Of a stretch of 64,000 nt of DNA, positions 4,758-61,000 are shown in pieces (positions within the stretch are counted from its first letter, which is position 1; each line of letters starts with the position of its first letter). The position numbers were made by a program, and so were the translations under genes. The DNA is taken from contig CAVPZX010000002.1 in the NCBI GenBank assembly GCA_963710375.1, forward strand, positions 640,001 through 704,000, written 5' to 3'. The notes under the pieces are model-generated. The model did no database searches and had not been told where the DNA came from. It saw only the letters and a program-made list of their open reading frames with translations. This DNA comes from Nitrospirota bacterium (GTDB lineage: Bacteria; Nitrospirota; Thermodesulfovibrionia; Thermodesulfovibrionales; Dissulfurispiraceae).

Positions 4758-4907
4758 AGAAGGCTAAGGGCAAAAGGCTAAAGGCTAAAGGTTGAATAAA
4801 AAACAAAAGTTAGATATTGGATTGTTATGTTGCATGTTTTATGGGCTGGCGTCTGTCCTCCTCCTTTTGCCTTTTGCCTTTTGCCTTTCGCCATCTTCTG
4901 CCTTTGC
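4758..4907. repeat. Fold-back element of inverted 7-mer arrays (AAAGGCT / CCTTTTG)
   Basis: Left arm 4758-4791, right arm 4860-4907 (CCTTTTG x3); overlaps the tolB start and signal peptide. Confidence 0.8.
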
Positions 4908-6099
4908 AGATAAAGTTTATATTGACATCACCGCGCCAGGCATTAAAAAGCTGCCTATCGCGGTGCAGGACTTTCCCGGCAAAAAGGAGATTTCCGATAT
5001 TGTAAAAGACGACCTCAACTTTACCGGCCTTTTTGATTGTGTTGACGAGTCTGTCCAGATCGAACACCCTGATCAGCCTTTCAATCCCGTTAACTGGCTG
5101 GGGCTGGGGATCGAACTTGTAGTCAAAGGCAGGGTCTCTTTTTTTGCAGCAGACAAGTTCATCGTAACTGTTTCCGCGTATGACGTCTCTGATGGAAGGG
5201 AAATACTGAAGAAAGAGTATGCGGCTACAACTGAACTGTCCCGTCCAGTCGCCCATTCCATTGCAAATGATATCTATACTCTCCTTACCGGACAGCAGGG
5301 AATATTCAAAACAAAGATCGCGTTTATCGCCGACAAAGGATGGAAAAAGGAACTGGAGTTGATGGATTGGGACGGTCACAGGATACAGGAAACCGCTATA
5401 ACCTCAGACATTTTGATGACGCCGCATTGGTCACCGGACAAGACAAAGCTTCTCTATTCCGCAGAGCGTTATCGCCAGTGGGGAATTTACCTGTTCGATA
5501 TTAATTCCATGAAGGAACGGAGCCTGATGCTGACGAATGGTTTGAATATAGCGGGCAACTTTTTCCCGAACAGTTATGATTTTGTTTTCACATCGTCAAA
5601 AGACCTGAATTACGGCATCTATATTGCCAATCTTAGCAATGTACATGGCAGGAAAATTGTTTCCTCACCCTGGATCGATGTTTCCCCCTCGGTTTCTTCT
5701 GATGGCAAGTCTATCGTCTTTGTTTCCAACAGATCAGGCAATCCTCAGATATACATTGTTGACCGGGACGGCTATGGATTAGGCAGACTGACCTTTCAGG
5801 GCAACTACAACACCTCTCCGGCATGGTCTCCTCAGGGCAACAAAATTGCTTACACAAGCATGATAGGAGGGAGGAACCAGATTTTTATAATTAATGCTGA
5901 CGGCACAAACCCGACCCAGCTCACCGACAGAGGAAACAACGAAAACCCTTCCTTTTCTCCTGACGGCAGATACCTGGCCTTTTCATCGACCATGGACGGT
6001 CCAAAAGGGATTTATCTTATGCGGATTAATGGAGAAGGTGTTCTAAAGATAACACCGAAAAACATGAAGGCGCTAAACCCAAGCTGGTCGCCGATGTAA
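4792..6099 (+). CDS. tolB: Tol-Pal beta-propeller protein TolB
   Basis: VYIDIT N-terminus, PD40 repeats (SPAWSPQG, NPSFSPDG), position after tolQRA; start uncertain. Confidence 0.95.
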   Translation: MNKKQKLDIGLLCCMFYGLASVLLLLPFAFCLSPSSAFADKVYIDITAPGIKKLPIAVQDFPGKKEISDIVKDDLNFTGLFDCVDESVQIEHPDQPFNPVNWLGLGIELVVKGRVSFFAADKFIVTVSAYDVSDGREILKKEYAATTELSRPVAHSIANDIYTLLTGQQGIFKTKIAFIADKGWKKELELMDWDGHRIQETAITSDILMTPHWSPDKTKLLYSAERYRQWGIYLFDINSMKERSLMLTNGLNIAGNFFPNSYDFVFTSSKDLNYGIYIANLSNVHGRKIVSSPWIDVSPSVSSDGKSIVFVSNRSGNPQIYIVDRDGYGLGRLTFQGNYNTSPAWSPQGNKIAYTSMIGGRNQIFIINADGTNPTQLTDRGNNENPSFSPDGRYLAFSSTMDGPKGIYLMRINGEGVLKITPKNMKALNPSWSPM

Positions 6100-6112
6100 A
6101 GGAGGGTGCACT

Positions 6113-6598
6113 ATGAAATTTACCCATTTCAACAAAGAGGGAAAAGCGAAGATGGTGGACGTTTCCGGAAAAGCGCCTTCCATGCGCGAGGCAGTCGCCT
6201 CAGGCTCTGTGCACATGAAGCCTGAAACAATGCGCCTCATCAAAGAGGGTTCCATCCAAAAAGGCGATGTGTTTGGCGTGGCGAGGATTGCAGGCATAAT
6301 GGCAGCCAAAAAAACCTCTGAACTGATTCCAATGTGCCATCCGCTGAACCTGGCATACGCAGCGGTTGATTTCTCTTTTAACGAGAGCGCCGGGACAATT
6401 GACATTAAGGCCACAATAAAAATAACCGGACAGACAGGGGTCGAAATGGAGGCGCTAGTTGCCGTGTCTTCTGCTGCCCTCACTATTTACGACATGTGCA
6501 AATCAGCAGACAAAGAAATGGTCATATCCGATATCATGCTCCTCGAAAAACGCGGCGGCAAAAGCGGGGAATTTAAAAGGAAAGGCAATAGGCAATAG
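6113..6598 (+). CDS. moaC: Cyclic pyranopterin monophosphate synthase MoaC
   Basis: MVDVSGK, LIPMCHPL, TGVEMEAL, IYDMCK motifs; GGAGG SD. Confidence 0.97.
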   Translation: MKFTHFNKEGKAKMVDVSGKAPSMREAVASGSVHMKPETMRLIKEGSIQKGDVFGVARIAGIMAAKKTSELIPMCHPLNLAYAAVDFSFNESAGTIDIKATIKITGQTGVEMEALVAVSSAALTIYDMCKSADKEMVISDIMLLEKRGGKSGEFKRKGNRQ

Positions 6599-6687
6599 GC
6601 TTTGGGCAATGGGCCAAGACAGACAAACATAAAAAGTCTTTTTTCTTTTTCTTTACCTATAGCCTATCGCCAATAACCTATTGCCTT
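6582..6687. repeat. Fold-back element of inverted 7-mer arrays (AGGCAAT / ATTGCCT)
   Basis: aaggcaataggcaataggc...gcctatcgccaataacctattgcctt between convergent genes; contains the moaC stop. Confidence 0.85.
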
Positions 6688-6691
6688 GTTT

Positions 6692-7201
6692 TTATTGATA
6701 CCTTTTGACGCTGAATCGGAATATTTGGACATCCTTATCACCAAGGTCGATGCCTGCCTTCATTTTTGTGATCCTCAATTGATCTTCAACGGTATTGACC
6801 CCCTCCAGGTCGGGAAGCAATAGCCCCCTTCTGGCGCCCTTAATTACAATAATTCCGTATTTTTTGGGATCCAGTTGCGACAGGTCTTTTACCGGTTCGG
6901 GCGCCGACAGGACGTTGACCGAATAGTGGAGCCCTTCCAGTTCGGTTTGGAGCAATGGATGAAATCTGGGGTCTTCTGTAGCAGCAGCAACAGCATTTTT
7001 TACTATTTCCTCGTAGAGGTTCTCTGATGTGGGGAGAAACGTCCCGATGCAGCCCCGCAGATCGTTGCCCATTTTCAGACAGACAAATACACCGTTTCTT
7101 TCCTTCATGTCGTCAGGGACCTCTTCAGGGAGGGGGAGCACTTTTCTGTGGAGTATGTACTCCTCAATAGCCTTCCTGGCAAGCGCGACATACGGGTGCA
7201 T
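6692..7201 (-). CDS. AMMECR1 domain protein (AmmeMemoRadiSam protein A-like)
   Basis: [21 protein letters not shown] motifs. Confidence 0.93.
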
Positions 7202-7203
7202 GG

Positions 7204-8232
7204 CTACTCCTTTCGCTGCATTGCGTATTCAGCCATTGCAAGAAGAGCTTCCTTTCCCTCAGAGTGAGGAAACCCTGCCAGTTCGGACTTTGCCTCTTCA
7301 ACAAGAGCCTCAGCTATGATAAGTGACTCCTCTATTGCATGGTATTGTTCAAACAGCGCCATAACCCTTTGGCGGCCCTCTTCGCTTTCAGCCCGTGTCT
7401 TTATAATGCCCCTGATTTCATCCTGCTCAACATCAGATGCATTTTTAAGAAGATAAATAAGAGGCATAGTGATCTTTCCCTCTTCAAGGTCCTTGCCGAG
7501 CTTCTTGCCGAGGTTTCTCTGGTCAGCAACATAATCGAGGATGTCATCGGCAAGCTGGAATGCTATACCGGTCTTCATCCCGAAGCGGGCCAGCGCCATC
7601 TCATTCTCCTCAGGCTGGCCGGCCAAAATTCCACCTATCCTGCAGGCCGCTGATATCAGGACACCAGTCTTTGCGGCGACAATATCAAAATATTCCTCTT
7701 TTGTTATCTCCGGATCTCCGACTTTATTAAGCTGCAGGATTTCACCTTCCGTCATCCGGGTAGTTGCCTCGGATAGCGCTTCCATTATCTTCTGGTTTTT
7801 CTGGTCAACCGCAATCTTCAGCGCCTTGGAATACAGAAAGTCTCCTACCAGTATGACGACCTGGTTTCCCCAGACAGCGTGTGCAGCAGGCTTTCCTCTC
7901 CTGGTATCAGCGCCGTCTATAACATCGTCATGCAGCAATGAAGCGGTATGTATGGCCTCAATAATTGCCGCAAGCAGTGTGCGGTTTGCCTCCTCATATC
8001 CGCAGAGGTCAGCACTGAGAAGGAGGAATAATGGGCGTATCCGCTTTCCTCCGCCGCTGATGAGATGCTGTCCTATCATAGGGATCAGAAAGACGTTGCT
8101 GCTGAAGATTCCGAGGAGCTGCCGTTCAACGGTCTGCATCTCTTCCGCATAGTGTGAAAAAATATCTTTGATATTCATAAAATTATTAACGTGTCTTACG
8201 TTACCGCCTTGCATGCCGTCATATGCTGTCAT
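7204..8232 (-). CDS. Polyprenyl diphosphate synthase (IspB-like)
   Basis: [15 protein letters not shown] and LADDILD aspartate-rich motifs; alternative start at 8178. Confidence 0.95.
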
Positions 8233-9299
8233 AACGCATCAGGATTCAATCGAATAGATTCCACATTAATACTCTCTTCCGCGAGTTTCTTGATATCCCG
8301 CGGCCTGAATGCCCCCTTTTCGGTAAAAAAGGAGGTGACATATCTGGCCGGAGTTACATCGAATGCCAAGTTTATTACATTAACGCCTAAAGGCGCAACT
8401 CTTTGTCCGCGAATAGTGGTCACCTCGTCAGCGTGGCGTTCCTCGATAGGTATATGCTCCCCGGACTCCATGCCAAAATCAATGCTGCTTAACGGCGCTG
8501 CCACATAGAACGGGATACCGTGCTCCCTGCACAAGACTGCAACAGTGTATGTGCCGATCTTGTTTGCCACATCTCCGTTCCTCGTCGTCCGGTCAGTGCC
8601 GACGATTGCAAGGTCAATGGCACCTTTTTTCATAAGCGCTCCGGCTGTATTATCGGTTATCAGCGTTACCGGTATGCCGGCCTGCATCAGTTCCCATGCT
8701 GTCAGCCGGGCACCCTGCAGTACCGGTCGTGTCTCATCAGCAATTACCTGTATGCGTTTGCCCTGGTCCTTTGCAATCAGCATAGGGGCAGTTGCCGTGC
8801 CGTATCCGCCGGTGGCAAGGCTGCCGGCATTGCAATGTGTAAGGATAGTGTCTCCATCCCTGATAAAACCGGCCCCCCATCTGCCAATCGCCTTGTTTAT
8901 CTCTATATCTTCTTCGAGTATCCTCTTTGCCTCATCGATAAGCAGTTGTTTAACAGCGCTCACCTGCTCGTTTTTTCGAGCGGCGAGCAATCTCTTAATC
9001 CTCTCTACCGCCCACTTTATATTCACGGCAGTAGGCCTTGTGGCAAGCAGGGCATCCATCACCGGCTCAAGCTTTTTTGAAAAATCGTCCATAGTGCCGG
9101 CTTTTATATCCTGTGCCCCGAGTGCTATGCCCATGGCAGCAGCAATTCCGATTGCCGGGGCTCCCCTGATCCAGAGCTTTTTGATACCCTCCGCAACTTT
9201 CAGGTAGTCTGCACATTCTACATAAATCACTTCAAGCGGCAGCCTGCTCTGGTCAAGCATAAAAACCTTGTTATCTTTCCATTCTATCGTGCTGACCAT
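8229..9299 (-). CDS. mtnA: S-methyl-5-thioribose-1-phosphate isomerase
   Basis: IRGAPAIG, TRPTAVN, THCNAG, ETRP, ANKIGT motifs. Confidence 0.96.
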   Translation of the reverse strand: MVSTIEWKDNKVFMLDQSRLPLEVIYVECADYLKVAEGIKKLWIRGAPAIGIAAAMGIALGAQDIKAGTMDDFSKKLEPVMDALLATRPTAVNIKWAVERIKRLLAARKNEQVSAVKQLLIDEAKRILEEDIEINKAIGRWGAGFIRDGDTILTHCNAGSLATGGYGTATAPMLIAKDQGKRIQVIADETRPVLQGARLTAWELMQAGIPVTLITDNTAGALMKKGAIDLAIVGTDRTTRNGDVANKIGTYTVAVLCREHGIPFYVAAPLSSIDFGMESGEHIPIEERHADEVTTIRGQRVAPLGVNVINLAFDVTPARYVTSFFTEKGAFRPRDIKKLAEESINVESIRLNPDAL

Positions 9300-9415
9300 A
9301 TCGAATCTCCAATATATATTTTTTAAAAAAATGTTCCGACAAACATCCTGATAAGAGCATTATTATAACCGTTGTTGCCATGGCAATTCTACACTATAAG
9401 GGGTGTGGTAGTGGA

Positions 9416-10054
9416 TCAGCTTCTTTTTGCTGAGGCGAGAAACCGCTGGGCATTCATCTTTATATCGCCCTCCAGGAGTCCTGAGGACACCGCGACACCC
9501 TCACAGCCTGTTTCAAAGACAGACAGCACATTATCGGGCCTTATTCCACCGATTGCTATTACCGGTATGGTTGCCGCATTCTTTACCGCCCTCAACCCTT
9601 CTACCCCTTTCGGAGTTCCCACCTCTTTGGTTGCGGTAGGAAAGATAGAGCCAAAACCTATGTAATCTGCGCCTCCCCTTTCAGCTTCGAGCGCTTCCTT
9701 AACAGAATGGGTCGAGATGCCGATTATTCTATTGCCCATAATCTTTCTTGCCTCCTTAAGGGGCATGTCATCCTGACCAAGGTGGACTCCGTCAGCATCG
9801 ACGGCGAGGGCAATATCGGCATAATCATTGATAATAAGGCAGGCATTAAACATCCTTGTGATTTCTCTCAGTCTGAGCGCTTCGAAAAAGACCTCTCTGC
9901 GTGTTTTGTCCTTTTCCCTGTATTGTACCCACATGATGCCAGACTCCAGGATTATCTTGACGGTCTTATCGAGAGGGTCAATCCCTGATGTACCCGTTAT
10001 AAAACAGATACGATTGGCAGCAAACTCAAAGCCACTTCTTTCCTCACGTCTCAC
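9416..10054 (-). CDS. thiE: Thiamine phosphate synthase
   Basis: QYREK, IIND, GVHLGQDD, AIGGI motifs. Confidence 0.95.
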   Translation of the reverse strand: MRREERSGFEFAANRICFITGTSGIDPLDKTVKIILESGIMWVQYREKDKTRREVFFEALRLREITRMFNACLIINDYADIALAVDADGVHLGQDDMPLKEARKIMGNRIIGISTHSVKEALEAERGGADYIGFGSIFPTATKEVGTPKGVEGLRAVKNAATIPVIAIGGIRPDNVLSVFETGCEGVAVSSGLLEGDIKMNAQRFLASAKRS

Positions 10055-11432
10055 TGCTCCCGTTTTTCACCACCTCCGCAGTCTGCTCCATGTCACCCAT
10101 CCTGTCAATAAAGTCCGTGCCGAAATTACCCTTTATAAAGTCAGGATGGCTCAAGACTTTCTTGTGAAAAGGAATGGTTGTTTTGATCCCTTCAATAATA
10201 AACATGTCGAGCGCCATTTTCATCTTGGCGATGGCCTCCTCCCTGTTTTTTGCATGGACCACGACCTTTGCTATCATGGAGTCATAGTGTGAAGGCACTA
10301 CCCAGCCGGTATATGCAGCAGTATCGACTCTCACACCAGGCCCTCCAGGCGGTACAAAAAGTGTCAACCTGCCCGGAGAAGGGATAAATTTTTCAGGGTC
10401 TTCAGCGTTTATCCTGCATTCCATGGAATGGCCTGCGGGCTTGATCTGGCTCTGTTTATAGGTGAGAGGGAGGCCTGCGGCTATCTTGATCTGTTCCTTT
10501 ATGATGTTGACACCGGTAAGCTCTTCAGTCACAGGATGCTCCACCTGGACCCTGGTATTCATTTCCATGAAATATATATTTTGTTCCTGATCAACAATGA
10601 ACTCTATAGTGCCTACATTTTTATATTTCAGGGCCTTTGCCGCACGCACTGCAAGGTCACCGAGCTTTTTACGAAATTTCTCTGTCACAACAGGCGAGGG
10701 CGCCTCTTCTATAAGCTTTTGATGCCTCCTCTGCACAGAGCAGTCACGCTCTCCCAGATGAATCACATTGCCCTTACCGTCGGAGACTATCTGGACTTCG
10801 ATATGCCGGATAGATGGGAGGAATTTTTCAAGATACACTTCACTATTTGCAAACGCGCCGAGCGCCTCACGCTGGGCCATATGGAAAGCGGACACTATCT
10901 CATCTTCTTCTGTGACAATCCTCATGCCCCTGCCCCCGCCTCCTGCAGAAGCCTTGATAATCAATGGAAACCCTATCTTCCTCGCCAGTTTGAGCGCTGC
11001 CTCTTCAGATTCCACAGGTCCATCGCTGCCCGGCACAACCGGAATCCCGCGCCGTTTCATCACCTGACGCGCCTTTGCCTTATCGCCGCCCAATCTCATG
11101 CTCTCGGCAGTCGGGCCTATAAAAGTAATGCCTGAGGTGAAACAGGATTCGGCGAACTGCGGGTTTTCGGAAAGAAAACCGTAGCCCGGGTGGATTGCTT
11201 CGGAATCGGTAAGTTCCGCGGCGCTGAGAATTGCCGGGATATTCAAATAGCTATTGGTAGGATTTGCAGGACCAATACAGATGGACTCGTCGGCAACTGT
11301 TACATGAAGGGCCTCGCGTTCGATATCGGAAAAAACAGCGACAGTCTTGATGCCGAGTTCTTTGCACGCATAAATGACGCGCACGGCGATCTCCCCACGA
11401 TTGGCAATCAGTATCTTTTTAAAAAGCTTCAT
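10044..11432 (-). CDS. accC: Acetyl-CoA carboxylase biotin carboxylase subunit
   Basis: ANRGEIA, HPGYGFLSEN, RDCSVQRRHQK motifs. Confidence 0.97.
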   Translation of the reverse strand: MKLFKKILIANRGEIAVRVIYACKELGIKTVAVFSDIEREALHVTVADESICIGPANPTNSYLNIPAILSAAELTDSEAIHPGYGFLSENPQFAESCFTSGITFIGPTAESMRLGGDKAKARQVMKRRGIPVVPGSDGPVESEEAALKLARKIGFPLIIKASAGGGGRGMRIVTEEDEIVSAFHMAQREALGAFANSEVYLEKFLPSIRHIEVQIVSDGKGNVIHLGERDCSVQRRHQKLIEEAPSPVVTEKFRKKLGDLAVRAAKALKYKNVGTIEFIVDQEQNIYFMEMNTRVQVEHPVTEELTGVNIIKEQIKIAAGLPLTYKQSQIKPAGHSMECRINAEDPEKFIPSPGRLTLFVPPGGPGVRVDTAAYTGWVVPSHYDSMIAKVVVHAKNREEAIAKMKMALDMFIIEGIKTTIPFHKKVLSHPDFIKGNFGTDFIDRMGDMEQTAEVVKNGSSET

Positions 11433-11457
11433 ATGTCAACCGGCCTGATCTGATCAG

Positions 11458-11907
11458 CTACCCTGCAGGGTCAAGCAGGAAAAGCGGCTCGCCATATTCC
11501 ACCGGATGCCCGTTTTCGACCAGAATTCTCACCACCACGCCATCAATTTCACTCTCTATTTCGTTCATAAGCTTCATGGCCTCTATGATGCAAAGGATCT
11601 GTCCCTTTTTGACCCTTGTCCCGGTCTCGGCAAAAGGTTCGGCCTCAGGAGAGGACGACCTGTAAAAGGTGCCGACAATAGGAGAGGTGACCGTAAAGAG
11701 CTTTACTTCAGGACCGGGTTCCGATACGAGGTCCACTTTTCCGTGTACCTCTCTCCTGTCAGGCAGAATCGATTGCGGGATCTCAAGGTGACTGAAGAAT
11801 TTTTCACGCCGTATCTTAACTTTAACGCCGTCTTTCTCGACCTGAAGCTCGGTCACGTCTGTATCTTTCAGAAGGCTCATCAGTTCTTTTAATTCCTCAA
11901 GCTCCAT
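11458..11907 (-). CDS. accB: Biotin carboxyl carrier protein
   Basis: EAMKLMN biotinylation motif. Confidence 0.97.
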
Positions 11908-11933
11908 CGGCTCACCTCCATTTGCCCTTTGCC

Positions 11934-12497: not shown

Positions 12498-12506
12498 ACA
12501 CCTCCT

Positions 12507-13580: not shown

Positions 13581-13589
13581 AATAAATAC

Positions 13590-13696
13590 AGGCTATAGGC
13601 AATAGGCTGTAGGCAATAGGCGATGGGTCACAAAGCAAAGAAACGTAAAGAGACTTTTTCTTTTGCCGATAGCCTATTGCCCATTGTCTATTGCCT
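13590..13696. repeat. Fold-back element of inverted 7-mer arrays (AGGCAAT / ATTGCCT)
   Basis: aggctataggcaataggctgtaggcaatagg...gcctattgcccattgtctattgcct; supplies the last codons and stop of the TPR gene. Confidence 0.85.
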
Positions 13697-14297: not shown

Positions 14298-14329
14298 ATT
14301 GATCGCTGCCAGGTCCTCTTATTGTATGC

Positions 14330-15508: not shown

Positions 15509-15510
15509 TG

Positions 15511-19367: not shown

Positions 19368-19473
19368 CGTGAATCGTGAATCAAAAGACGTGAAAAGTGA
19401 ATAGTGAATAGTAAAGGCCAAAAAAATGCCTTGTAGAATACTTGGTGTCATTCACTTTTCACGTCTTTACACG
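19368..19473. repeat. Fold-back element of inverted 7-mer arrays (GTGAATA / TTCAC)
   Basis: cgtgaatcgtgaat...gacgtgaaaagtgaatagtgaatag...attcacttttcacgtc. Confidence 0.8.
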
Positions 19474-24956: not shown

Positions 24957-25192
24957 TAATCCATATTATTCATAAATTTATACGAGGAGCAGGCGGGACA
25001 TGGTGCTGAGCGGACTTTGACAGCCTAAGGGACACCAAGGATGGTGACACAGGCTGTCATAGCCTCGGAGCAAGGCTGGACGCCTTGCGAGAAGACGGGG
25101 TCCCCGAAAGGTCGAAGACCTTTGGGGTGGCAGTTGAGTGAAGCACTGTGGCCTGACTGCTCCTTGTATAAATTTATGAATAATATGGGTTA
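24957..25192. mobile_element. MITE-like palindromic element A (236 bp)
   Basis: About 36-bp terminal inverted repeats with two mismatches, TA at both ends, nested internal hairpins, no ORF. Confidence 0.75.
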
Positions 25193-25894: not shown

Positions 25895-26563
25895 CTATTT
25901 CCGGACAACCTGTCCTGTCGGCTCCCATGTGAGGGCCTTTACCGGAGGTGGAGGACGAAAACTCTCTACCAGGTCCCCTATCCTCGCACTGCTGAAATGC
26001 TTTATTCTTATGCCGGCCAGCTGTCCCTGCACAACCTTCTTTACCGCTGTATCTCCTACATGGAGCGACTCTATAGTGCCTTCGAAAACAGGCCCCATGG
26101 CAGAGATAACGCGGAAGCGTTCGCCAATAGAAAAAACGCCTTCCATAACTTCGCATCCAATGATGATACCCTTCCTGCTGCTTTTGAAAAGGGCTATTAT
26201 TTTGCCGGAGCCAATTACCTGCTCCTCTGGAAAATGGGGGACCAGGGCCCCGGCAATAGCCTTGATGTCATCGATGAGATTGTAAATCACATCATAAAGG
26301 CGCACCTCCACCCTTTGCTCCCTTAACAACTTATCCAGGAACGGCATAACGCCGGTCTGAAAACCAATGATGAGCCTGCTTGCAGTCTCGGCAAAAAGAA
26401 CATCGGATTTGCTGATGGCCCCGATGCCGCTGTGGATAACGCTGATATCGACATCGGTCACGGTCAGTGCTGCAAGGCTATTGGTGACAGCCTCCACGCT
26501 TCCGGCTGTATCGCATTTAAGGACTATTTCGAGCTTTGTCTTTTTACTTTGCGGTGGAACCAT
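25895..26563 (-). CDS. Stand-alone IF2 C-terminal (C1+C2) domain protein
   Basis: LEIVLKCDTAGSVEA, IGAISKSDV, VIYNLIDDIK, IGCEVMEG resemble IF2 C-terminal domains; no GTPase domain; start moved from 26632 (inside a MITE) to ATG 26563. Confidence 0.82.
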   Translation of the reverse strand: MVPPQSKKTKLEIVLKCDTAGSVEAVTNSLAALTVTDVDISVIHSGIGAISKSDVLFAETASRLIIGFQTGVMPFLDKLLREQRVEVRLYDVIYNLIDDIKAIAGALVPHFPEEQVIGSGKIIALFKSSRKGIIIGCEVMEGVFSIGERFRVISAMGPVFEGTIESLHVGDTAVKKVVQGQLAGIRIKHFSSARIGDLVESFRPPPPVKALTWEPTGQVVRK

Positions 26564-26569
26564 ATTCAA

Positions 26570-26598
26570 ATCATAGGGCACCAGCCAAGTGCTGTCAA
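26570..26598 (-). promoter_or_regulatory. sigma70 promoter, leaderless arrangement
   Basis: TTGACA-17 bp-TATGAT, 6 nt before ATG 26563. Confidence 0.78.
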
Positions 26599-26604
26599 TT
26601 CCAT

Positions 26605-26786
26605 AGGGCTCGCGAATAAATAACTTGTGCATTCAGGCGCTCAGATTTAGGTCAGATTTGGCTGATCCGACTGAGCAAAACCGCAGGCGTAGCATCGCTA
26701 CGTTGAGGATTTTGCGACTGAGGATCGGGCAAAGCTGGCCTGAAGCTTAGATGCATCAATGTGCAAGTTATTTATTAGCGAGCCCT
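26605..26786. mobile_element. MITE-like palindromic element B (182 bp)
   Basis: TIRs agggctcgcgaataaataacttgtgcatt / aatgtgcaagttatttattagcgagccct; central cgtagc-atc-gctacg hairpin. Confidence 0.75.
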
Positions 26787-28254: not shown

Positions 28255-28335
28255 AGGGGAGAACCGGAGAATCGGCGAATCGGCGAAAAGTCTTTTGCTC
28301 CGATTCACTCTTTCGCCCCTTCCCCGATTCTTCCT
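28255..28335. repeat. Fold-back element of inverted 8-mer arrays (CGGCGAAT / CCGATTC)
   Basis: ggagaaccggagaatcggcgaatcggcgaaa...ccgattcac...ccccgattcttcc between convergent genes. Confidence 0.75.
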
Positions 28336-35437: not shown

Positions 35438-35537
35438 CAGGTTAAGGCTGAGGTTAAGGTTGAGTCATAAACAAAAAACTAACTGCTGTAAGTCATCAGA
35501 AATGTTTTTATCTTTTCTTAACCTTAACCTTAACCTG
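35438..35537. repeat. Fold-back element of inverted 6-mer arrays (AGGTTA / TAACCT)
   Basis: caggttaaggctgaggttaaggttgag...cttaaccttaaccttaacctg between rnfC and rnfD. Confidence 0.88.
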
Positions 35538-43866: not shown

Positions 43867-43938
43867 AAATATATAATAACAAACTAATATCTATAAGTGC
43901 AACAAAAAATTTTGACAAGCAGGGGAGAAGAAGTAAAT

Positions 43939-46987
<3,049 letters not shown>

Positions 46988-47123: not shown

Positions 47124-47208
47124 AAAACCAGGTTAAGGTTAAGGTCGAGGTAAGAAAAAAATAAACTCTGTTTTCCTCATGTCTTAACCTTAACCTTTGC
47201 CTGGTTTT
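47124..47208. repeat. Fold-back element of inverted 6-mer arrays between the two tRNAs
   Basis: aaaaccaggttaaggttaagg...cttaaccttaacctttgcctggtttt. Confidence 0.85.
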
Positions 47209-47290: not shown

Positions 47291-47413
47291 AGCGTCTTCG
47301 TAAAAAATCCATATGCTGCGTTGCGCTGCATGCATCGTCACTGCGACGTACCATCAGCACGCCTCATTCCTCAGCATTTGCGCAGCTTGCCTATGGACTT
47401 TTTACGAGACCCT
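47291..47413. mobile_element. MITE-like palindromic element C in the 16S-tRNA spacer
   Basis: TIRs tcgtaaaaaatccata / tatggactttttacga with an internally paired core. Confidence 0.7.
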
Positions 47414-51149: not shown

Positions 51150-51185
51150 TAATCATATTTTTTTGCCAGGTGCTTAAAGATGGTT

Positions 51186-51214
51186 AAAAAAAGGGGGAAC
51201 ACAGCGCCCCCCTC
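51186..51214 (-). terminator. Intrinsic terminator after ahcY
   Basis: G-run/C-run stem followed by T7 on the minus strand. Confidence 0.7.
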
Positions 51215-51223
51215 CCGGTTGAT

Positions 51224-53649
<2,426 letters not shown>

Positions 53650-53749
53650 TGCTCACCTCCGGTGTTATATTAAGAACACAGTGCTCTCAAAATCTGGAAT
53701 TTTTATAATATCACCTGACCTGCGCACAATACAATAGCCGAACTGGCGT

Positions 53750-54772: not shown

Positions 54773-54819
54773 CTAAATGCTCCTATCCCCTGGTATTACT
54801 GCTACGCTGTAAGTCTTGC

Positions 54820-55323
54820 TCATACTGCTGCTCCTTTCATACGCCTCTTTGTCCACTCGATCAGCCCACCGGCGCCTATCAGTTCCTGCATAAACGGCGG
54901 AATCGGATTCGCGGTATATTGTTCGCCGGTAGAGAGATTCTTAATAATTCCTTTATCCGCATCGATTTCTATTATTTCACCTTCCCTGATTTTCTCAGAT
55001 GCCTCTTCGGACTCAAAGATCGGCAGCCCTATATTGAAGGAGTTGCGGTAGAATATCCGCGCAAAGCTCTTTGCAATAACCGCCTGGATACCCGCAGCCT
55101 TTATAGCAATGGGCGCATGCTCCCGTGAAGAACCGCAACCGAAATTTTTGCCGGCAACGATGATGTCGCCTGCCTGTACTTTAAGAGGAAAGTCCTTATC
55201 AGCATCCTCCATAAGATGGCGTGCAAGCTCGCCGGGATCGGATGTGTTAAGATATCTGGCCGGAATAATCGCATCAGTATCTATATCGTTCCCAAACCTC
55301 CAGACCTTTCCTTTCAATAACAT
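54820..55323 (-). CDS. leuD: 3-isopropylmalate dehydratase small subunit
   Basis: [30 protein letters not shown]. Confidence 0.94.
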
Positions 55324-55398
55324 GGCAAACCTCCGATTGCTTTTTGAAAACTTATTGTAATAAACTTTATATTATACCGTGACGTTCAATAATTTTCT

Positions 55399-56337
55399 AT
55401 GAAAAAAGTAATCCTCCTCCTCGGTCCAACGTGCGTCGGGAAGACAGCCGTATCCCTTGTGCTTGCCAAGGCCCTGAATTCGGAAATCATAAGCGCCGAT
55501 TCCATGCAGATTTACAAACATATGGATATAGGGACAGCCAAACCGTCGGCTGAGGAACAGCGGCTGATAAAGCACCATATGATCGATATAGTCGAGCCTT
55601 GGGATTTCTACAGCACAGGGGAGTACATCAAGGACGTTCAGTCTGTTGTTTCAGCACTCCACAGCCGGAAAAAAATTCCACTTGTTGTCGGAGGCACAGG
55701 ACTCTACATCAAGTCCATGACGCGTGGTATTTTCAAGGGACCTTCGGCTGACTGGGAGATGAGGAACGCCTTTCTGGATGAAGAGCGGGCGAAAGAGGGA
55801 TCTCTTTACAGGCGCTTGATGTCACTTGATCCGGCGGCTGCTTCAAAAATAATGCCCGCTGATACGAGAAGGACAATAAGGGCGCTGGAAGTATTCATGA
55901 AAAGCGATACGTCCCTGTCGGAGATGCACCGGACAGCAACCAATCCCCTTCCCTATGAATTCATAAAAATTGGGATCACAAGGGAGAGGAAAGAACTTTA
56001 CAGTATGATCGATGCCAGGATCGATGCAATGATGGAGCAGGGACTTCTGGAGGAGGTAAAAGATGTTATGCGGATTATTAAGGAGCATGGGACCAAAGCC
56101 AATTTGGCGTCCTATCCCTCTATGCAGGCCATCGGCTACAAAGAACTAACAATGTATTTTGACGGCGATATCTGCCTTGATGAGGCAATCAACCTTATCA
56201 AGCAAAGCTCCCGCAACTATGCCAAAAGGCAATTCACATGGTTCAAAAAAGAGGAAGGGATTCAGTGGATCGATGTGACAGGAACTCATGATGCAAATGA
56301 AATATTTCAAAAAGTGAAAGTATCCAGCCTCATCTAA
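55399..56337 (+). CDS. miaA: tRNA dimethylallyltransferase
   Basis: GPTCVGKT, DSMQIY, GGTGLY, YAKRQFTW. Confidence 0.97.
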   Translation: MKKVILLLGPTCVGKTAVSLVLAKALNSEIISADSMQIYKHMDIGTAKPSAEEQRLIKHHMIDIVEPWDFYSTGEYIKDVQSVVSALHSRKKIPLVVGGTGLYIKSMTRGIFKGPSADWEMRNAFLDEERAKEGSLYRRLMSLDPAAASKIMPADTRRTIRALEVFMKSDTSLSEMHRTATNPLPYEFIKIGITRERKELYSMIDARIDAMMEQGLLEEVKDVMRIIKEHGTKANLASYPSMQAIGYKELTMYFDGDICLDEAINLIKQSSRNYAKRQFTWFKKEEGIQWIDVTGTHDANEIFQKVKVSSLI

Positions 56338-56360
56338 CCTCTCACCTCTCTCCTTTTGTG

Positions 56361-57389
56361 CTATTGCTCCATCCTCTGTTCAATGCTTTCCATTACCATC
56401 AAAAGCAGCGCAATAACCAGCGGACCTGCAACAAACCCTATTAAACCGAAAAGATGGATTCCTCCGAGCACTCCAAAAAAAATCAGAACTGTATGGATCT
56501 TGGCCCGCTGGCCTATTACTTTGGGTCTCAGTATATGGTCGATTATTCCCACCAGGAAAACAATGGCTATAACCGCCATAATTACACCCTTGATAAAAGA
56601 TCCCGTTAAAAAGAGGTAGACAGTAACCGGTCCCCAAACTGTAAAATCGCCGAGTACCGGAATAAAAGAAAACACCGACATGGCAAAACCGAGCAGTATA
56701 GGAGACGGAACACCCAGGAAATAAAATGCGCTTCCGCCGATAATCCCGTGTGCCAGCGCAATCATTACTCCCCCGTATATGGTTGAAACTATGACCTCTC
56801 TTATTCTCAAAAAAAGCCGGTTTTTCTGTTCATCAGGCAGCGGCAGCAGCCTGTATATTCGAGCAATAAAAATTTGCCCGTCACGTAGAAGGAAAAAAAT
56901 TGTAAAAAGCATCATGAAGTAGTCAACAAATGCATGGACCGCACCAAGAGCATGCTCCTGGAACAGCCGCATCAGGCTCTTCTCAATGCTTTCGGCAAGT
57001 CCACGCAGAATGTCATATATGCTATCAACAGGCACATCCAGCAGCCGGGCAATGCTTGCAAGCATATCTTTAATATTGGCGTTTCCGAAAAACATAGCTG
57101 TCATGCCGCGTTCATTGAGGTGAGCGATTACCGCTTTGATCTCCATGGCTAACAAATAAGTAACATATGTTAACGGCCCGATGAAAAGAAGAAAGGAAAT
57201 AATGACCATAACGGCTGCAGCAATGGATGAACTTTTGATCTTTACACGAATGGACTCATATACAGGATATAAAACGATCGAAAATATCACGGCCCAGCAG
57301 ATAGCAGGCATGAAAGGTAAAAACATATTGTAAGCAATATATACGAGCCCCGCAACCAGGGTATAAAAGAGAAAAGTTTTTTCTTTCAT
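56361..57389 (-). CDS. AI-2E family transporter
   Basis: Multi-TM; IDHILRP and GFVAGP motifs. Confidence 0.9.
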   Translation of the reverse strand: MKEKTFLFYTLVAGLVYIAYNMFLPFMPAICWAVIFSIVLYPVYESIRVKIKSSSIAAAVMVIISFLLFIGPLTYVTYLLAMEIKAVIAHLNERGMTAMFFGNANIKDMLASIARLLDVPVDSIYDILRGLAESIEKSLMRLFQEHALGAVHAFVDYFMMLFTIFFLLRDGQIFIARIYRLLPLPDEQKNRLFLRIREVIVSTIYGGVMIALAHGIIGGSAFYFLGVPSPILLGFAMSVFSFIPVLGDFTVWGPVTVYLFLTGSFIKGVIMAVIAIVFLVGIIDHILRPKVIGQRAKIHTVLIFFGVLGGIHLFGLIGFVAGPLVIALLLMVMESIEQRMEQ

Positions 57390-58414
57390 AACCTTACCAA
57401 TCCGCTCATCCTTACCCCGACAAGCCTTATTTTCTTCTTCAGTTCGAATCTGCCAAGACAGTAGAAGGCGGCCTTCCGAATAACTTCCAGGCTATCGGTC
57501 GGGTCCTCGAGTGTCGTGGCTCGCGTCTGAGTCTTGAAATCGCTGAACCGTATCTTTACGGTAACATTTTTGGCCCTATACCCTCTATCCTTCAACTCTG
57601 CCACAGTCTCTCTCGTCAAGTCAGCCAAGTGCCTTGCAATGGTCTGCCAATGGTCGGTATCGGTCTGGAAGGTTGTCTCCCTGCTTATGGACTTGGGTTC
57701 CCAGTGCGTGACGAGGGGGCTTTCATCTATGCCCCGGGATGCTTCATAAAGGTAATGTCCGTAAGATGTTCCGAAATGCTCCAACAATTTTTCGAGCGAT
57801 ACAGCCGCCAGTTCCCCTATGGTATTGATTGACAGTTCTTTCAAATATGCCTCTGTCCTGGGGCCTACACCCCAAAGTTTTCTCACCTGCAATGGCCATA
57901 TACGGTTCTCTATATCCCCGTCTTTAATAATAGTCAGTCCATCAGGTTTTTCCATGTCCGAGGCTATCTTTCCGAGAAGCTTATTCGGGGCAATACCGAT
58001 GGAACAGGTGAGCCCTGTGGCAGCTCTTATCCGCTCTTTGATTTCCTGAGCTACTTGCTCCTGCGGCTTGTCGATATCAGAGAGGTCGAGAAAGGCTTCG
58101 TCTATCCCGACATCTTCCATCACAGCGCTGAACTCTTTAAGGACTATTTTTAATGCCTCGGATACTCTGGAATACTCTTCAAAGTCCACAGGCAGGAAGA
58201 CGGCATTAGGACAGAGCTTATGCGCTGTTCTCAGCGGCATGGCGGAATGGATGCCATACTTCCGGGCCACATAATTGGCAGTTGAAACTACGCCTCTCTT
58301 CAAGGGGTCTCCCGACCCGCCTATCACCACTGGTTTATTTTTCAATTCCGGATGCCTTTGTTCCTCTACCGCAGCAAAAAAGGCATCCATGTCCAGGTGG
58401 AGGATACGTCTCAT
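57386..58414 (-). CDS. dinB: DNA polymerase IV
   Basis: HLDMDAFFAAVE, GIDEAFLD, KPDG. Confidence 0.96.
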   Translation of the reverse strand: MRRILHLDMDAFFAAVEEQRHPELKNKPVVIGGSGDPLKRGVVSTANYVARKYGIHSAMPLRTAHKLCPNAVFLPVDFEEYSRVSEALKIVLKEFSAVMEDVGIDEAFLDLSDIDKPQEQVAQEIKERIRAATGLTCSIGIAPNKLLGKIASDMEKPDGLTIIKDGDIENRIWPLQVRKLWGVGPRTEAYLKELSINTIGELAAVSLEKLLEHFGTSYGHYLYEASRGIDESPLVTHWEPKSISRETTFQTDTDHWQTIARHLADLTRETVAELKDRGYRAKNVTVKIRFSDFKTQTRATTLEDPTDSLEVIRKAAFYCLGRFELKKKIRLVGVRMSGLVRL

Positions 58415-58470
58415 GGAATATTATAAGCTACAATGCAGGTCTATGTGCATTACTGTGATACAATTTAGAC

Positions 58471-59196
58471 ATGCCTGAACTGAGAATCGGCTGCAGCGGA
58501 TTTAATTACCGGCATTGGAAAGGGACCTTTTATCCTTCTCATCTGCCGCAGAGGAAATGGTTTGAGCATTACTGGACGGCCTTTAATACGGTTGAATTGA
58601 ATGTAACGTTTTACAGACTTCCGCTTGCGGGTACATTTGACAAGTGGCGTGATGAAACTCCTGCTGACTTTGCATTTTCATTAAAAGGCAGCAGATATAT
58701 ATCCCATGTGAAAAAGCTTTTAGACGCTAAAGAGCCTTTGGAACTGTTTTTTAAAGGGGCATTACGGCTAAAAGGAAAATTAAAGGTTATCCTTTGGCAG
58801 TTCCCTCCGGGGTTTAAAGCAAACATTAAAAGGCTGAAAATATTTCTCGAATTGCTTCAGACATACCCAATCGGAAACACCCTTGAATTCAGGCACGAAA
58901 GCTGGATAACTGACAAAGTAATTGATCTTTGCAAAGAATATAATACAAGTCTCTGCATGGCTGACTGGCCTGAGTTCATTGATGATCTACCTGTTACCTC
59001 TGATTTTGTTTACATAAGGAGGCATGGCCAAGGCGGCAGCTATGATGCCTGCTATCCAAAAACAAAACTTCAAAAAGATGCGAGAAGAATAAAAAGCTAT
59101 CTGGAGGATGGGAAAAATGTATTTATTTACTTCAATAACGACTATAGCGGCTATGCTCCAAGAAATGCAACAGAGTTGCTTGATATGGTGAGATGA
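58471..59196 (+). CDS. DUF72 domain protein
   Basis: IGCSGF, VELNVTFYR, QFPP, EFRH, YFNND. Confidence 0.93.
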   Translation: MPELRIGCSGFNYRHWKGTFYPSHLPQRKWFEHYWTAFNTVELNVTFYRLPLAGTFDKWRDETPADFAFSLKGSRYISHVKKLLDAKEPLELFFKGALRLKGKLKVILWQFPPGFKANIKRLKIFLELLQTYPIGNTLEFRHESWITDKVIDLCKEYNTSLCMADWPEFIDDLPVTSDFVYIRRHGQGGSYDACYPKTKLQKDARRIKSYLEDGKNVFIYFNNDYSGYAPRNATELLDMVR

Positions 59197-60920
59197 AAAA
59201 CCAGGAAATCGCAAAAATATTCAATGAAATAGCTGACCTTCTGGAGCTGAAAGGTGAGAACCCGTTCCGCATTAGGGCGTATCGCAGGGCAGCACTGAAT
59301 ATTGAGGGCTTGACAAAAAATATCGAAGAGATTTCTCATGAGGATATTCTGAATATTCCCGGAATCGGCCAGGACCTTGCTAGCAAGATGGAGGAGTACA
59401 TGAAGACAGGTATGATACAGGCATATGAAAAGCTTAAACAGGAAATACCCGGAGGATTATCCACTCTCCTTTCCATACCCGGACTTGGGCCAAAGACATC
59501 TAAATTGCTTTATGAAAAATTAAAAATTACAAACATCGAAGAACTCGAAAAATTTGCATCGGAGCATAAACTGGCTGGCTTGCCGGGGATAAAGGAAAAG
59601 ACGGAAGAAAATATTTTAAAGGGGATAGATATGCTGAAAAGGGGTAGGGAGCGTCAGCCCCTTGGCAAGGTGCTTCCTGTTGCAAAGGACATCCTTGGGT
59701 ATCTTAAGGAAAAAGCCCCTGTGGAAAAAATCGATCTTGCAGGGAGTTTAAGGAGATGGAAAGATACGATCAAAGATATTGATATCCTCGCAATGTCAGA
59801 CGATCCAAATGAGGTGATGAACGTATTTGTACATCTTCCCAATGTAAAAGAAATATTGATGCACGGACCAACAAGGTCCAGCATAATAACTCAGCAAAAC
59901 CTTCAGGTGGATTTAAGGGTTGTTGAAAGGGAATCTTATGGTGCTGCACTCACATATTTCACCGGCAGCAAGGCACACAACATAAGGCTCAGAGAGATGG
60001 CTATAAAGAAAGGGCTAAAACTAAATGAGTACGGAATATTCCGTGAAAAAAACAACAAACGGGTGGGAGGCGAAAGGGAACAGGATGTTTACGCGATATT
60101 GGGACTCCCATATATCCCACCTGAACTAAGGGAAGACCAGGGAGAGATAGAAGCAGCCCTGGCAGGAACACTTCCCAGCCTCATCACCGTAAAGGATATT
60201 AAAGGGGACCTCCATGTCCATTCCAGGTGGAGCGACGGCAGCAATTCGTTTGAAGAACTTGTAGAGGCCGCCCGGAAACACGGCTATGACTATTTTGCAC
60301 TGACTGATCATTCCCGCGGCCTTGCTGTGGCAAGAGGGCTGACAATCGAAAGGCTTATGGATCAGAAAAAAGAGATTGATGCGCTAAACAAGAAACTTAA
60401 GGGCTTCAGGATACTCCAGGCAACTGAGGTCGATATAAAGGGCGACGGCACGCTTGATTTCCCCGACGATGTTTTGGAAAAGCTCGATCTTGTCGTCGCA
60501 TCCATACATTCAGGCTTCAAACAGTCAGCGCAGCAACTTACCGGACGTATGGTTGCAGCAATGAAAAACCCTTACGTCAGCATCATCGGACATGCCTCGG
60601 TCAGGCTCATCGGCGAGAGAGAGGCATATGAGCTTGATATGGAACGCGTGTTAATGACCGCAAAAGAAACAGGCACTGCTTTTGAAATAAATGCCTACCC
60701 GCTGCGGCTTGACCTCAACGACACTTTTGCCAGAAGGGCAAAAGAAATGGGAATCCCCATAGTAATAAGCACTGACGCCCATACCATCGATCAGTTTGAC
60801 TATATGAGTTACGGAGTCTCCATCGCCAGGCGGGCGTGGCTCGAAAAAGGGGATGTCGTAAATACCTTTGGACTGAATATGTTGCTCAAGAAGCTTAAGC
60901 CCCACAAAGAACGTGAATAG
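59193..60920 (+). CDS. polX: DNA polymerase X / PHP exonuclease
   Basis: GSLRR..DID, FTGSKAHN, PPELRE, DLHVHS, TDAH. Confidence 0.96.
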   Translation: MKNQEIAKIFNEIADLLELKGENPFRIRAYRRAALNIEGLTKNIEEISHEDILNIPGIGQDLASKMEEYMKTGMIQAYEKLKQEIPGGLSTLLSIPGLGPKTSKLLYEKLKITNIEELEKFASEHKLAGLPGIKEKTEENILKGIDMLKRGRERQPLGKVLPVAKDILGYLKEKAPVEKIDLAGSLRRWKDTIKDIDILAMSDDPNEVMNVFVHLPNVKEILMHGPTRSSIITQQNLQVDLRVVERESYGAALTYFTGSKAHNIRLREMAIKKGLKLNEYGIFREKNNKRVGGEREQDVYAILGLPYIPPELREDQGEIEAALAGTLPSLITVKDIKGDLHVHSRWSDGSNSFEELVEAARKHGYDYFALTDHSRGLAVARGLTIERLMDQKKEIDALNKKLKGFRILQATEVDIKGDGTLDFPDDVLEKLDLVVASIHSGFKQSAQQLTGRMVAAMKNPYVSIIGHASVRLIGEREAYELDMERVLMTAKETGTAFEINAYPLRLDLNDTFARRAKEMGIPIVISTDAHTIDQFDYMSYGVSIARRAWLEKGDVVNTFGLNMLLKKLKPHKERE

Positions 60921-61000
60921 TGAATGGTGAATAGTGAACAAAAACAGACAAAGATAACTGCATACTTTTCAATTCACCATTCACCATTCACCTTTCACGT
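60911..61000. repeat. Fold-back element of inverted 7-mer arrays (GTGAATA/GTGAATG vs ATTCACC)
   Basis: acgtgaatagtgaatggtgaatagtgaa...ttcaccattcaccattcacctttcacgt; contains the stop codons of both convergent genes. Confidence 0.9.

Follow-up and report, generated by a model that had tools for sequence, protein, structure and literature searches.

Introduction

In Coxiella's 23S rRNA intervening sequence (IVS), one of the closest described systems, heptamer repeats precede the gene for S23p and RNase III cuts at the first repeat, and S23p itself is argued to be probably unexpressed and decaying (PMC4990558, in the parts of that account drawn on here). The family to which S23p belongs (TIGR02436/S23p) is widespread and has solved structures, with no function assigned. 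The entry 2GSC holds five chains, and the same parts of PMC4990558, citing Lin 2006, give a homopentamer. In the portion of the Avd study used here, five protomers of Avd bind flipped-out bases of an RNA stem-loop (10.1101/2023.10.23.563531; 8UB7). Bacterial tandem repeats of 6-9 nt have been without an accepted origin or partner; in the words of one report, "no mechanism is evident" (PMC4679880).

Here we follow up a set of fold-back elements in a 64,000-nt stretch of a Nitrospirota genome (the window). A first-pass annotation, made from the letters alone, had taken them for possible empty, non-autonomous forms of a spreading element and/or double-stranded RNA processing sites. Our literature searches found no published description of this class of element.

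Results

Nine fold-back elements in the window

All nine elements of the first-pass annotation were confirmed in position and in architecture: a tandem arm rich in purines is followed by a spacer, A-rich in its first part and T-rich in its second, and then by the reverse-complement arm (Table 1). When folded as RNA and compared with 200 dinucleotide shuffles, eight of the nine had z-scores of -4.5 to -11.0; the element at 28255 is weak (z -2.2), with 3 of 200 shuffles equally good. The elements are not assembly artefacts, because contigs from other runs span those at 13590 and 46576 (X3 contigs from another study, 0 differences), 28255 (X2 and X3 contigs) and 35438 (an X2 contig with one gap). 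Contigs of near-identical strains show elements intact, with the proviso that contigs drop rare variants, and joints that skip elements derive from runs containing relatives.

Table 1. Positions of the elements and of two host genes in the window.
Feature	Position	Strand	Remarks
Gene-less element (4758 element)	4760..4892		7-nt unit, family 7; 18 nt past TonB-domain stop
tolB-like host gene	4792..6099	+	N-terminal signal peptide read through 4758 element
Gene-less element	6582..6687		7-nt unit, family 6; supplies moaC stop; convergent junction
Gene-less element	13590..13696		Family 6; between TPR gene (stop within element) and M24 peptidase gene
Gene-less element	19368..19473		7-nt unit, family 4; gives stop of short upstream minus-strand ORF
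Gene-less element	28255..28334		8-nt unit, family 10; immediately past TPR-gene stop; weakest of nine
Gene-less element	35438..35537		6-nt unit, family 12; within rnf-type operon, 6 nt past RnfC-like stop
23S rRNA intervening sequence (46576 element)	46565..46712	-	Outer stem plus family-12 arms 46597-46622 and 46655-46680
Host 23S rRNA gene containing the intervening sequence	43937..46987	-	
Gene-less family-12 element	47124..47208	-	Between two spacer tRNAs (Ile, Ala; read from anticodons)
Gene-less family-4 element	60910..61001		Gives both stops of convergent pair: PolX-like gene, 262-aa ORF

The remark that such elements often supply stop codons was fair, as the stop lies inside the element at four of the seven non-rRNA sites (6582, 13590, 19368 and 60911) and, genome-wide, 66 of 156 nearby stops fall within an element. 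At 4758, the coding sequence of the TolB signal peptide lies in the spacer and the right arm. The element at 46576 has the features of a 23S IVS: its 138 nt stand where the hairpin at positions 274-295 of Rfam RF02541 would have a 6-nt loop, with a long bounding stem, and it is missing in some relatives. An identical copy occupies the second rrn operon. The nine elements differ as a set from ORF-bearing IVSs, since none of them holds an ORF and one of nine lies in 23S rRNA.

A genome-wide class with at least ten repeat units

The genome-wide scan for tandem and inverted repeats that the annotation had suggested gave at least 246 loci as the union of a de novo and a relaxed scan, a floor because the scans recovered merely four and six of the nine window elements. 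Of the 190 elements in the de novo scan, 186 have the purine arm first; part of the contigs gave 101 elements as they stand and none once shuffled (1.29 Mb). From the relaxed scan came 236 arm pairs purine-arm-first and one reversed, with 0-1 in each of three shuffles. Spacer halves are 45% A, then 46% T. The earlier estimate of four or five units was too low: clustering, with two related 7-nt words merged in family 7, yields at least ten unit families. Their units have invariant cores and 1-3 free positions, in the same pattern in both arms, and mirrored units match slightly better within than between elements in 2/7 families only.

In 150 of 173 cases, the start of the arm lies between -30 and +20 nt from a stop, and this placement persists in long spacers (23/35, 11.3 expected). 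Junctions with elements are co-oriented (135), convergent (19) or divergent (23) at the genome average (2282/349/345), and the enrichment at convergent junctions that would mark intrinsic terminators is absent (19/177 vs 349/2976 junctions). Elements also lie within operons, within 23S rRNA and between tRNAs, and 12 ORFs contain them in frame. No G-U bias was found on the transcribed strand (99 vs 83, p 0.27), a result that is neutral to negative for selection at the RNA level, and outer-flank complementarity exceeds permutation in just 2-3 of five families. One long-gap pair considered as a cargo-bearing copy (C2:426695-427386) consists of two separate elements with an ordinary nucleotidyltransferase-like ORF in between, which is not cargo.

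Four-helix-bundle genes lie among the arms

Six genes of this genome score over the TIGR02436/PF05635 cut-offs (82-120 bits against 24; 86-126 against 33.8), and such arms accompany every one of the six, with a unit that differs from gene to gene, in two simple arm-gene-arm loci and four compound arrays. In this genome (G000) the six are at C5:373453, C8:73121, C5:318234, C5:269669, C5:208077 and C5:281051. The six proteins are 18-37% identical to one another, and the similarity of their units is at most 0.15. The one protein modelled (pLDDT 96.7) has a four-helix-bundle fold like Xcc0516 and BT_0352, with a TM of 0.93 to 2GSC and 0.81 to Avd 4DWL, which upholds the fold link to S23p and to DGR Avd; the cargo protein has no HUH/Tyr domain. 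A second cargo type that had been proposed, GxxExxY, is absent (0 TIGR04256/PF13366 matches in the 98.8% complete genome). Four of the ten unit families have no cognate gene in this genome, and spacers overall are not enriched in cognate-gene remnants (19/58 vs 11/40, and similar).

Across taxa, a strong array is present at 163 of 220 four-helix-bundle loci, compared with 10/346 control windows, and an inverted pair at 121 of the 220; this set leaves out L007 (a sub-cut-off kinase match), L229 (genome G186) and partial or duplicate proteins. A same-strand upstream ORF ends near the arm in 116/138 cassettes, 77 of them within -30..+20 nt. Cassettes and gene-less copies alike begin at the upstream stop, and the cassette gene mostly has the orientation of the host gene that ends there. 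None of the 220 loci lies within rRNA, which is often unassembled. TIGR02436/S23p was found in 27/41, 61/351 and 45/121 genomes searched.

Unit similarity climbs with protein identity. Between nearest neighbours from different groups (Nitrospirota relatives, a Gammaproteobacteria-class sample and a Cyanobacteria-phylum sample), it is 0.088 vs a null of 0.038 (p 0.0002, 105 loci), where p-values for word against clade overstate because kin are not independent; many close cross-group neighbours at 60-64% identity carry unlike units. Cross-phylum pairs with 65-75% identity are close to saturation at fourfold sites (0.30 vs 0.25 expected), yet the unit is common to 75% of 53 pairs, against a background of 1.3%. 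A collection scan contributed 80 loci, all of one clade because it used a single-protein query, and 44 of the 73 used are from Acidobacteriota. Two censuses of 41 genomes found a unit abundant mainly where its cognate gene is present. The first counted 9-170 family-12 matches in the six genomes with a family-12 clade gene and at most three in 31 of 35 others, with G003 and G001 holding 62 and 46 matches and no family-12 cognate gene. In the second, the five genomes richest in first-look candidates are the five with the family-4 cassette.

Orthologous junctions in relatives

The suggested comparison of orthologous junctions, with unanchored cases dropped, showed that none of the nine sites is fixed: relatives are empty or carry the same unit or another, and this turnover extends to the element inside 23S rRNA. 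Among eight relatives at the 4758 site, three carry another unit, one the same, and four are short or decayed. At 6582, G003 has a related but altered unit in both arms. The 13590 element is the same in G005, changed in unit in G003 and G001, empty in G007 and a remnant in G009; the 19368 site is the same in G003 and G005, has another unit in G001, is empty in G009 and has another insertion in G007. The 28255 site is decayed in G003 and has another unit in G002, the remaining five comparisons not being anchorable. At 35438, there are other 7-nt units in G003 and G006, a 6-nt variant in G002, and a short or empty junction in 5/8. The 47124 site has another unit in G003, is empty in G005, and has the same unit or a variant in G006 and G007, while 60910 is empty in one G006 locus and matched at 81% in another. 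At the 23S site, G002 and both G003 operons carry other units, G001 a native 16-nt hairpin, and an X8 contig the outer stem without arms.

In G003, a species ~88% identical, both arms switch word together at 6582 and 35438; spacers at word-swapped sites are not clearly homologous. Orthologous junctions come in three states: gene-filled, gene-less and element-free. The element at G000 C5:326743 has no gene but still matches the same-site G002 cassette for 11 nt across the start codon, and in this three-state comparison C5:328251 has another unit and the element is absent at four sites. Relatives have an array in 10/27 comparisons at G000-occupied junctions vs 12/177 at G000-free ones; eight of the ten scored as a different unit, two of these eight being merely a related variant. 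In all, 13/45 junctions were ever occupied, and gaps of at most 10 nt occur at 12/23 never-occupied vs 2/7 ever-occupied junctions. Nested insertion, hinted at by single sites, was set aside as a general route, second-family leftovers (7/236) being at background (77/2755).

Search for signs of mobility

No recent identical pairs of elements were found in the genome except the two rrn copies, and the best spacer similarity exceeds 0.5 in only 4/55 and 6/40; some family-4 spacers recur at distant loci with 60-66% similarity. The elements lack the near-identical copies of a classical MITE, whereas the ordinary MITE-like repeats of the genome have them. Target-site duplication, sought as 3-5 nt direct repeats in five families, is not above permutation, with element ends uncertain. 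The genome has no reverse transcriptase, and so no DGR in the sense of a reverse transcriptase plus an Avd over the cut-off. Its single Y1 transposase gene, a candidate mover, has its own terminal repeats and is not flanked by these arrays. Neither a mobilising enzyme nor a polymerase partner was found in the genome. That the elements spread is something we infer.

Discussion

The proposal of empty, non-autonomous forms is well supported by the six genes with arms and by junctions that are empty, gene-less or gene-filled, GxxExxY cargo being the part that fell away. Fixed sites and a lack of cargo-bearing copies, which the first-pass annotation held would count against it, are not what we see. 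We give a probability of about 0.6 to the following reading: a selfish cassette without a promoter has a protein that reads its own word, and the elements are its non-autonomous relatives that lack the gene. This best reading generalises the ORF-bearing 23S IVS. Also in its favour are the arrays at gene loci across taxa, the agreement of word with protein clade, the two censuses and the placement of arms at stops. Weighing against it are the scarcity of recent identical pairs, the negative results for target-site duplication, reverse transcriptase, a mover enzyme, G-U bias and gene remnants, the unit families and genomes with a word and no cognate gene, the unlike units of many close cross-group neighbours, and the argument that S23p is probably unexpressed and decaying in Coxiella (PMC4990558). 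Like Xcc0516 and Avd, the protein would assemble into a ring of five subunits. By analogy with Avd this ring may recognise 3-5 of the units in the folded arms, and the likeliest place for this is a transcript hairpin. RNase III could cut the long stem, as it cuts the Coxiella IVS, and the stem would hence be tolerated in 23S rRNA. Gene-less copies would arise via internal deletion, would spread or be kept in trans while the cognate gene is resident, and would decay afterwards, with the cutting and joining step presumably borrowed from the host. The elements may also be double-stranded RNA processing sites, to judge by the Coxiella precedent (the part of PMC4990558 cited above) and the 138-nt 23S hairpin-loop insertion.

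A DNA-level route is rather unlikely in our judgement. On this REPIN-like route the arms would fold in single-stranded DNA, the ring would be a specificity adaptor, and a host or IS nuclease would cut out and reinsert the hairpin without target duplication, so that the stop-codon position mirrors merely which sites are tolerated. This would suit the single profile of both arms, the lack of G-U bias and of target duplication, the average junction classes and the short gaps of never-occupied junctions, and several group-specific enzyme-repeat pairs per genome are the REPIN-RAYT pattern (PMC3116915, in the sections used here). The protein, however, has no HUH/Tyr domain, the Y1 gene is unflanked by arrays, stop proximity holds in long spacers, and the closest structural relative with a known ligand, Avd, binds RNA in the portion of that study used here. 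In-place rewriting, by which arms at a fixed junction would be converted or resynthesised to the resident protein's word with no refilling by mobile copies, is favoured by the joint change of both arms at 6582 and 35438, the excess of relatives' arrays at occupied junctions, nearly unique spacers, mirrored units barely better within than between elements, and second-family leftovers at background. We nevertheless think it quite improbable, since few tolerant junctions with fast turnover fit these data too, family-4 spacers recur at distant loci as copies would, swapped-site spacers are not clearly homologous and no polymerase partner was found. It is likewise doubtful that each paralogue is a programmable specificity ring which draws on a host polymerase or repair enzyme to put its own tandem word, newly or in place of another, on both strands of stop-codon junctions and RNA hairpin loops. 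If true, repeats would be written as a protein specifies, with neither transposase nor reverse transcriptase, and the heptamers of cyanobacteria, Beggiatoaceae, Bacteroidota and Xanthomonas would be accounted for.

Strong hairpins past stops, with A-runs before and T-runs after, could also serve the host as regulatory sites or as bidirectional terminators, with a resident regulator reading them, the gene being autoregulated via its own arms and nothing selfish; a regulatory network, along with a mobile protein that binds the repeats, has been put forward by MacGregor (PMC4679880). Convergent junctions are not enriched, elements lie inside operons, in frame inside ORFs, inside 23S rRNA and between tRNAs, and no site of the nine is conserved, which makes this very unlikely. 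Ordinary slippage repeats arising from hairpin-forming mutation, with the gene link as hitchhiking, would explain why unit counts vary, and in PMC4692102 inverted heptamer pairs count as simple sequence repeats unlinked to mobile elements. Such an origin is scarcely credible given the polarity of 236 to 1, position-specific degeneracy and a unit retained across phyla despite saturated synonymous sites; the array counts at gene loci and controls, with the cross-phylum sharing of units, already largely refute it.

The cassette reading would give the orphan TIGR02436/S23p family a testable job and supply a source for the long-unexplained 6-8-base repeats of bacteria. Linking the two makes both a single binding experiment, for which the six proteins and words of this genome form a natural 6 x 6 specificity matrix. 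Should the pairing prove real, the family comprises small rings with differing sequence preferences and is a source of rapid change in stops, signal peptides, protein linkers and rRNA.

Comparison with known systems

The heptamers of Beggiatoaceae, Cyanobacteria and Bacteroidetes (PMC4679880) resemble these elements in being dispersed, intergenic and of 2-6 copies, with patchy cross-phylum spread and a mechanism not known, as do the inverted heptamer pairs of Xanthomonas, 70 of them in Xcc (PMC4692102). We compared these through the papers' text, and neither main text contains "helix bundle"; the Beggiatoaceae word is present in the arms of four-helix-bundle loci L088 and L232. Avd (4DWL, 8UB7) shares the fold and, in the portion of the work used here, is a precedent for a pentamer that reads an RNA stem-loop. 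Unlike Avd, four of the six proteins score 28-36 bits against the NF033474 cut-off of 80 and two have no match, and there is no reverse transcriptase here.

REPIN-RAYT systems, in the sections of PMC3116915 drawn on, likewise comprise hundreds of extragenic inverted doublets with a spacer; within a genome these fall into several groups by sequence, and each group goes with a single-copy gene of its own, which its members flank. Our elements share this doublet form and the cognate-gene groups, without a flanked HUH/Y1 gene: their partner protein is a four-helix bundle and lacks the HUH-tyrosine domain, and the arms are tandem 6-9-mers, not palindromic REPs. Also close are the ORF-bearing 23S IVSs of Coxiella burnetii and Leptospira, which in the parts of PMC4990558 considered have a PF05635/TIGR02436 ORF within inverted repeats and tandem heptamers just upstream of it; the 46576 element also sits in a 23S hairpin loop. 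In contrast to the IVSs as described there, that element is inserted close to model position 280 instead of in helix 45, relatives differ in its word, nearly all copies lie outside rRNA and are gene-less, and six paralogues with six words coexist in one genome.

Results

Elements in the window and the genome

All nine fold-back elements claimed for the window in the first-pass annotation were found and matched their description. RNA folding z-scores for eight of them range from -4.5 to -11.0, with element 28255 the weakest at only -2.2. The window corresponds to C2:640001-704000 of G000. In this 3.19 Mb genome (98.8% complete), a de novo scan returned 190 elements, 186 of them purine-arm-first, and none in shuffled contigs. 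A relaxed scan returned 236 arm pairs purine-arm-first and one reversed. The union of the two is 246, and since each scan overlooks some window elements, the real total must be higher. The four or five repeat units first proposed gave way on clustering the de novo set to ten families with at least three members, plus four leftover elements.

Features of the window and of two loci elsewhere in G000 (elements by start coordinate)
Position	Feature	Unit	Remarks
4037-4742	TonB/TolA-like gene		broken into two ORFs
4758	element, family 7	7 nt
4792-4900	TolB signal peptide		encoded by spacer and right arm of an element (loci L164, L167, L170, L176 compared)
6099	junction		arm-free; arrays in 3/7 relatives, words differing
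6582	element, family 6	7 nt
11907	junction		arm-free; arrays in 3/5 relatives, words differing
13590	element, family 6	7 nt
19368	element, family 4	7 nt
24957-25192	MITE-like family		29 loci in G000, 17 near full length
25895-26632	245-aa ORF		matches only IF-2 domain PF11987; adjoins MITE-like repeat
26605-26786	MITE-like family		33 loci in G000, 26 near full length
28255	element, family 10	8 nt
35438	element, family 12	6 nt
46576	element, family 12	6 nt	in 23S rRNA
47124	element, family 12	6 nt
47298-47407	MITE-like family		in rRNA spacer; 22 loci in G000, 18 near full length
60911	element, family 4	7 nt
C2:220024-220350	single Y1/RAYT-like transposase gene (L285)		bounded by its own ~25-nt inverted repeats
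C5:211000-218000	TPR-containing genes (L009)		in-frame, tandemly amplified family-1 arrays; higher-order period ~42 nt

Placement statistics rest on our own gene calls (2985 genes). Arms start within -30 to +20 nt of a stop codon in 150 of 173 cases; for long spacers this holds in 23 of 35, against 11.3 expected, and gene-bearing cassettes are placed like gene-less elements. Twelve elements lie in frame within ORFs, 23 occupy divergent junctions, and 7 adjoin tRNAs. The distribution over junction types matches the genome background, which argues against a reading as terminators. At the TolB site, three species build the hydrophobic stretch of the signal peptide from three different words (repeat units), and short versions in relatives G001 and G008 resemble old arm remnants.

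The three MITE-like inverted-repeat families are of an ordinary kind and unrelated to the tandem arms. Contigs from two other sequencing runs (X3, X6) are one base shorter at 4342, so the split TonB/TolA-like gene is probably an assembly indel. The 245-aa ORF is possibly a partial paralogue.

Four-helix-bundle genes among the arms

Profile searches with TIGR02436, and likewise with PF05635, placed six genes over the cut-off in G000, none of them within the 64-kb window. The suggestion that copies elsewhere enclose four-helix-bundle ORFs was borne out: each of the six is set among arms, in a simple arm-gene-arm layout at two loci and within compound arrays at the other four. The other suggested cargo, a GxxExxY ORF, was not found in this 98.8% complete genome. 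The one protein modeled (pLDDT 96.7) resembles Xcc0516 (TM 0.93) and Avd (TM 0.81), in line with the proposed kinship to DGR Avd, and also matched BT_0352. The six loci carry words of families 6, 4, 12, 1 and 11 and of a subtype merged into 7; their proteins are 18–37% identical and their unit profiles dissimilar. Families 2, 3, 5 and 10 have no resident cargo gene in G000, and words of families 2 and 5 border four-helix-bundle genes in relatives (L063, L074). Genes near the cargo loci, where looked at, include sugar-nucleotide and polysaccharide functions.

Words follow their proteins

The survey set of 220 distinct full-length loci drew on G000 and its relatives (66), a single cross-phylum clade (78), five named genomes (19), the class Gammaproteobacteria (28) and the phylum Cyanobacteria (29). 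A strong array is present at 163 and an inverted pair at 121 (control windows, 10/346), with opposite arm order at a few (L208, L215, L283). Two loci, L088 and L232, in or near the clade of L016, have arms with the Beggiatoaceae heptamer given in PMC4679880.

Words group by clade on the tree of the 66 proteins. Kin are not independent in these pairing statistics or in the census below; with that proviso, among 189 loci with arrays, similar units occur in 1–2% of pairs below 50% protein identity, 47% at 60–70% and 93–100% above 70%. Cross-group nearest-neighbor unit similarity is significant and modest (0.088 vs. 0.038 under the null), many pairs being unlike. As a saturation control, 361 cross-phylum pairs (Acidobacteriota left out) had fourfold-site identity of 0.27 against 0.25 expected, and 37% had a unit in common; for the 53 of these at 65–75% identity the figure was 75%, over a background of 1.3%. 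Because the word is kept while synonymous sites saturate, beyond what linkage alone explains, we infer that this non-coding word is under constraint linked to its protein.

In a census of 41 genomes, family 12 gave 170, 53, 47, 40, 14 and 9 matches in the six holding the clade gene; 62, 46, 13 and 6 in G003, G001, G025 and G006, where no gene was found; and at most 3 in each of the remaining 31. First-look candidates for family 4 numbered 73, 60, 35, 33 and 32 in five cassette-bearing genomes and at most 17 in the other 36; scored matches were 40, 35, 24, 5 and 2, and at most 5, respectively.

Turnover at orthologous sites

Orthologous junctions, which the first-pass annotation proposed comparing for empty sites, do vary: at least one relative differs at all nine window sites. 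In an automated count over 45 gene junctions, the six occupied in G000 were compared with relatives 27 times and showed an array 10 times; the 39 free ones were compared 177 times and showed one 12 times, spread over seven junctions. Among sites that are gene-filled in relatives, G000 has at L056 a same-family gene-less element with an 11-nt match spanning the start codon, at L028 a gene-less element with another word, at L027 a gene-filled site whose word differs and whose protein is 58% identical, and at L043, L063, L066 and L080 no element. The 60911 region occurs twice in G006 (L186, L195), once with the element and once without; this bin may mix two organisms.

Element 46576, alone among the nine an intervening sequence (IVS) by position, puts 138 nt in place of a 6-nt loop at model positions 274–295 of 23S rRNA, which we take to be helix 15. 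Its word is of family 12 in G000, G005 and G007 and another in G002 and G003, whose two operons differ from each other. The insertion is missing in G001, and a contig from a further run (X8) has its outer stem with the arms absent.

Discussion

The arms look as if they are read unit by unit rather than made by simple fold-back copying: units combine invariant cores with one to three free positions at frequencies equal in both arms, and only in two of seven families are mirrored units more alike inside an element than between elements. Two precedents lead us to favor a selfish cassette working on RNA hairpins. Avd binds a single RNA stem-loop by holding its flipped-out bases with five protomers (bioRxiv 2023.10.23.563531), and in the Coxiella IVS heptamer repeats precede S23p, with an RNase III cut at the first repeat (PMC4990558). 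By analogy, and with a probability of roughly 0.6, the elements belong to a promoterless selfish cassette whose four-helix-bundle protein would form a putative word-specific ring on the RNA hairpin of the arms, gene-less copies being served in trans by the resident cassette protein.

Two results count against an RNA step: the elements lack a G-U bias, and the search of G000 for a reverse transcriptase gene came back negative. Mobilization of the elements as DNA hairpins is unlikely in our estimate. Ordinary transposition is opposed by the failure to find target duplications, young identical copies or a transposase for the elements, and rewriting of the arms in place appears less probable still than DNA hairpins.

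The elements lack the defining features of MITEs and of diversity-generating retroelements. In the open-access literature, to which our search was confined, we found no published account of this element class; supplements of PMC4679880 and PMC4692102 list repeat-adjoining genes, among which four-helix-bundle genes might appear under different names. In working the system is like REPIN-RAYT (PMC3116915), without the features that define it, and with the S23p IVS (PMC4990558) it has the protein family and arm design in common. To these G000 adds six protein-word pairs side by side and a single 23S site within which words are swapped, along with the saturation control and both censuses.
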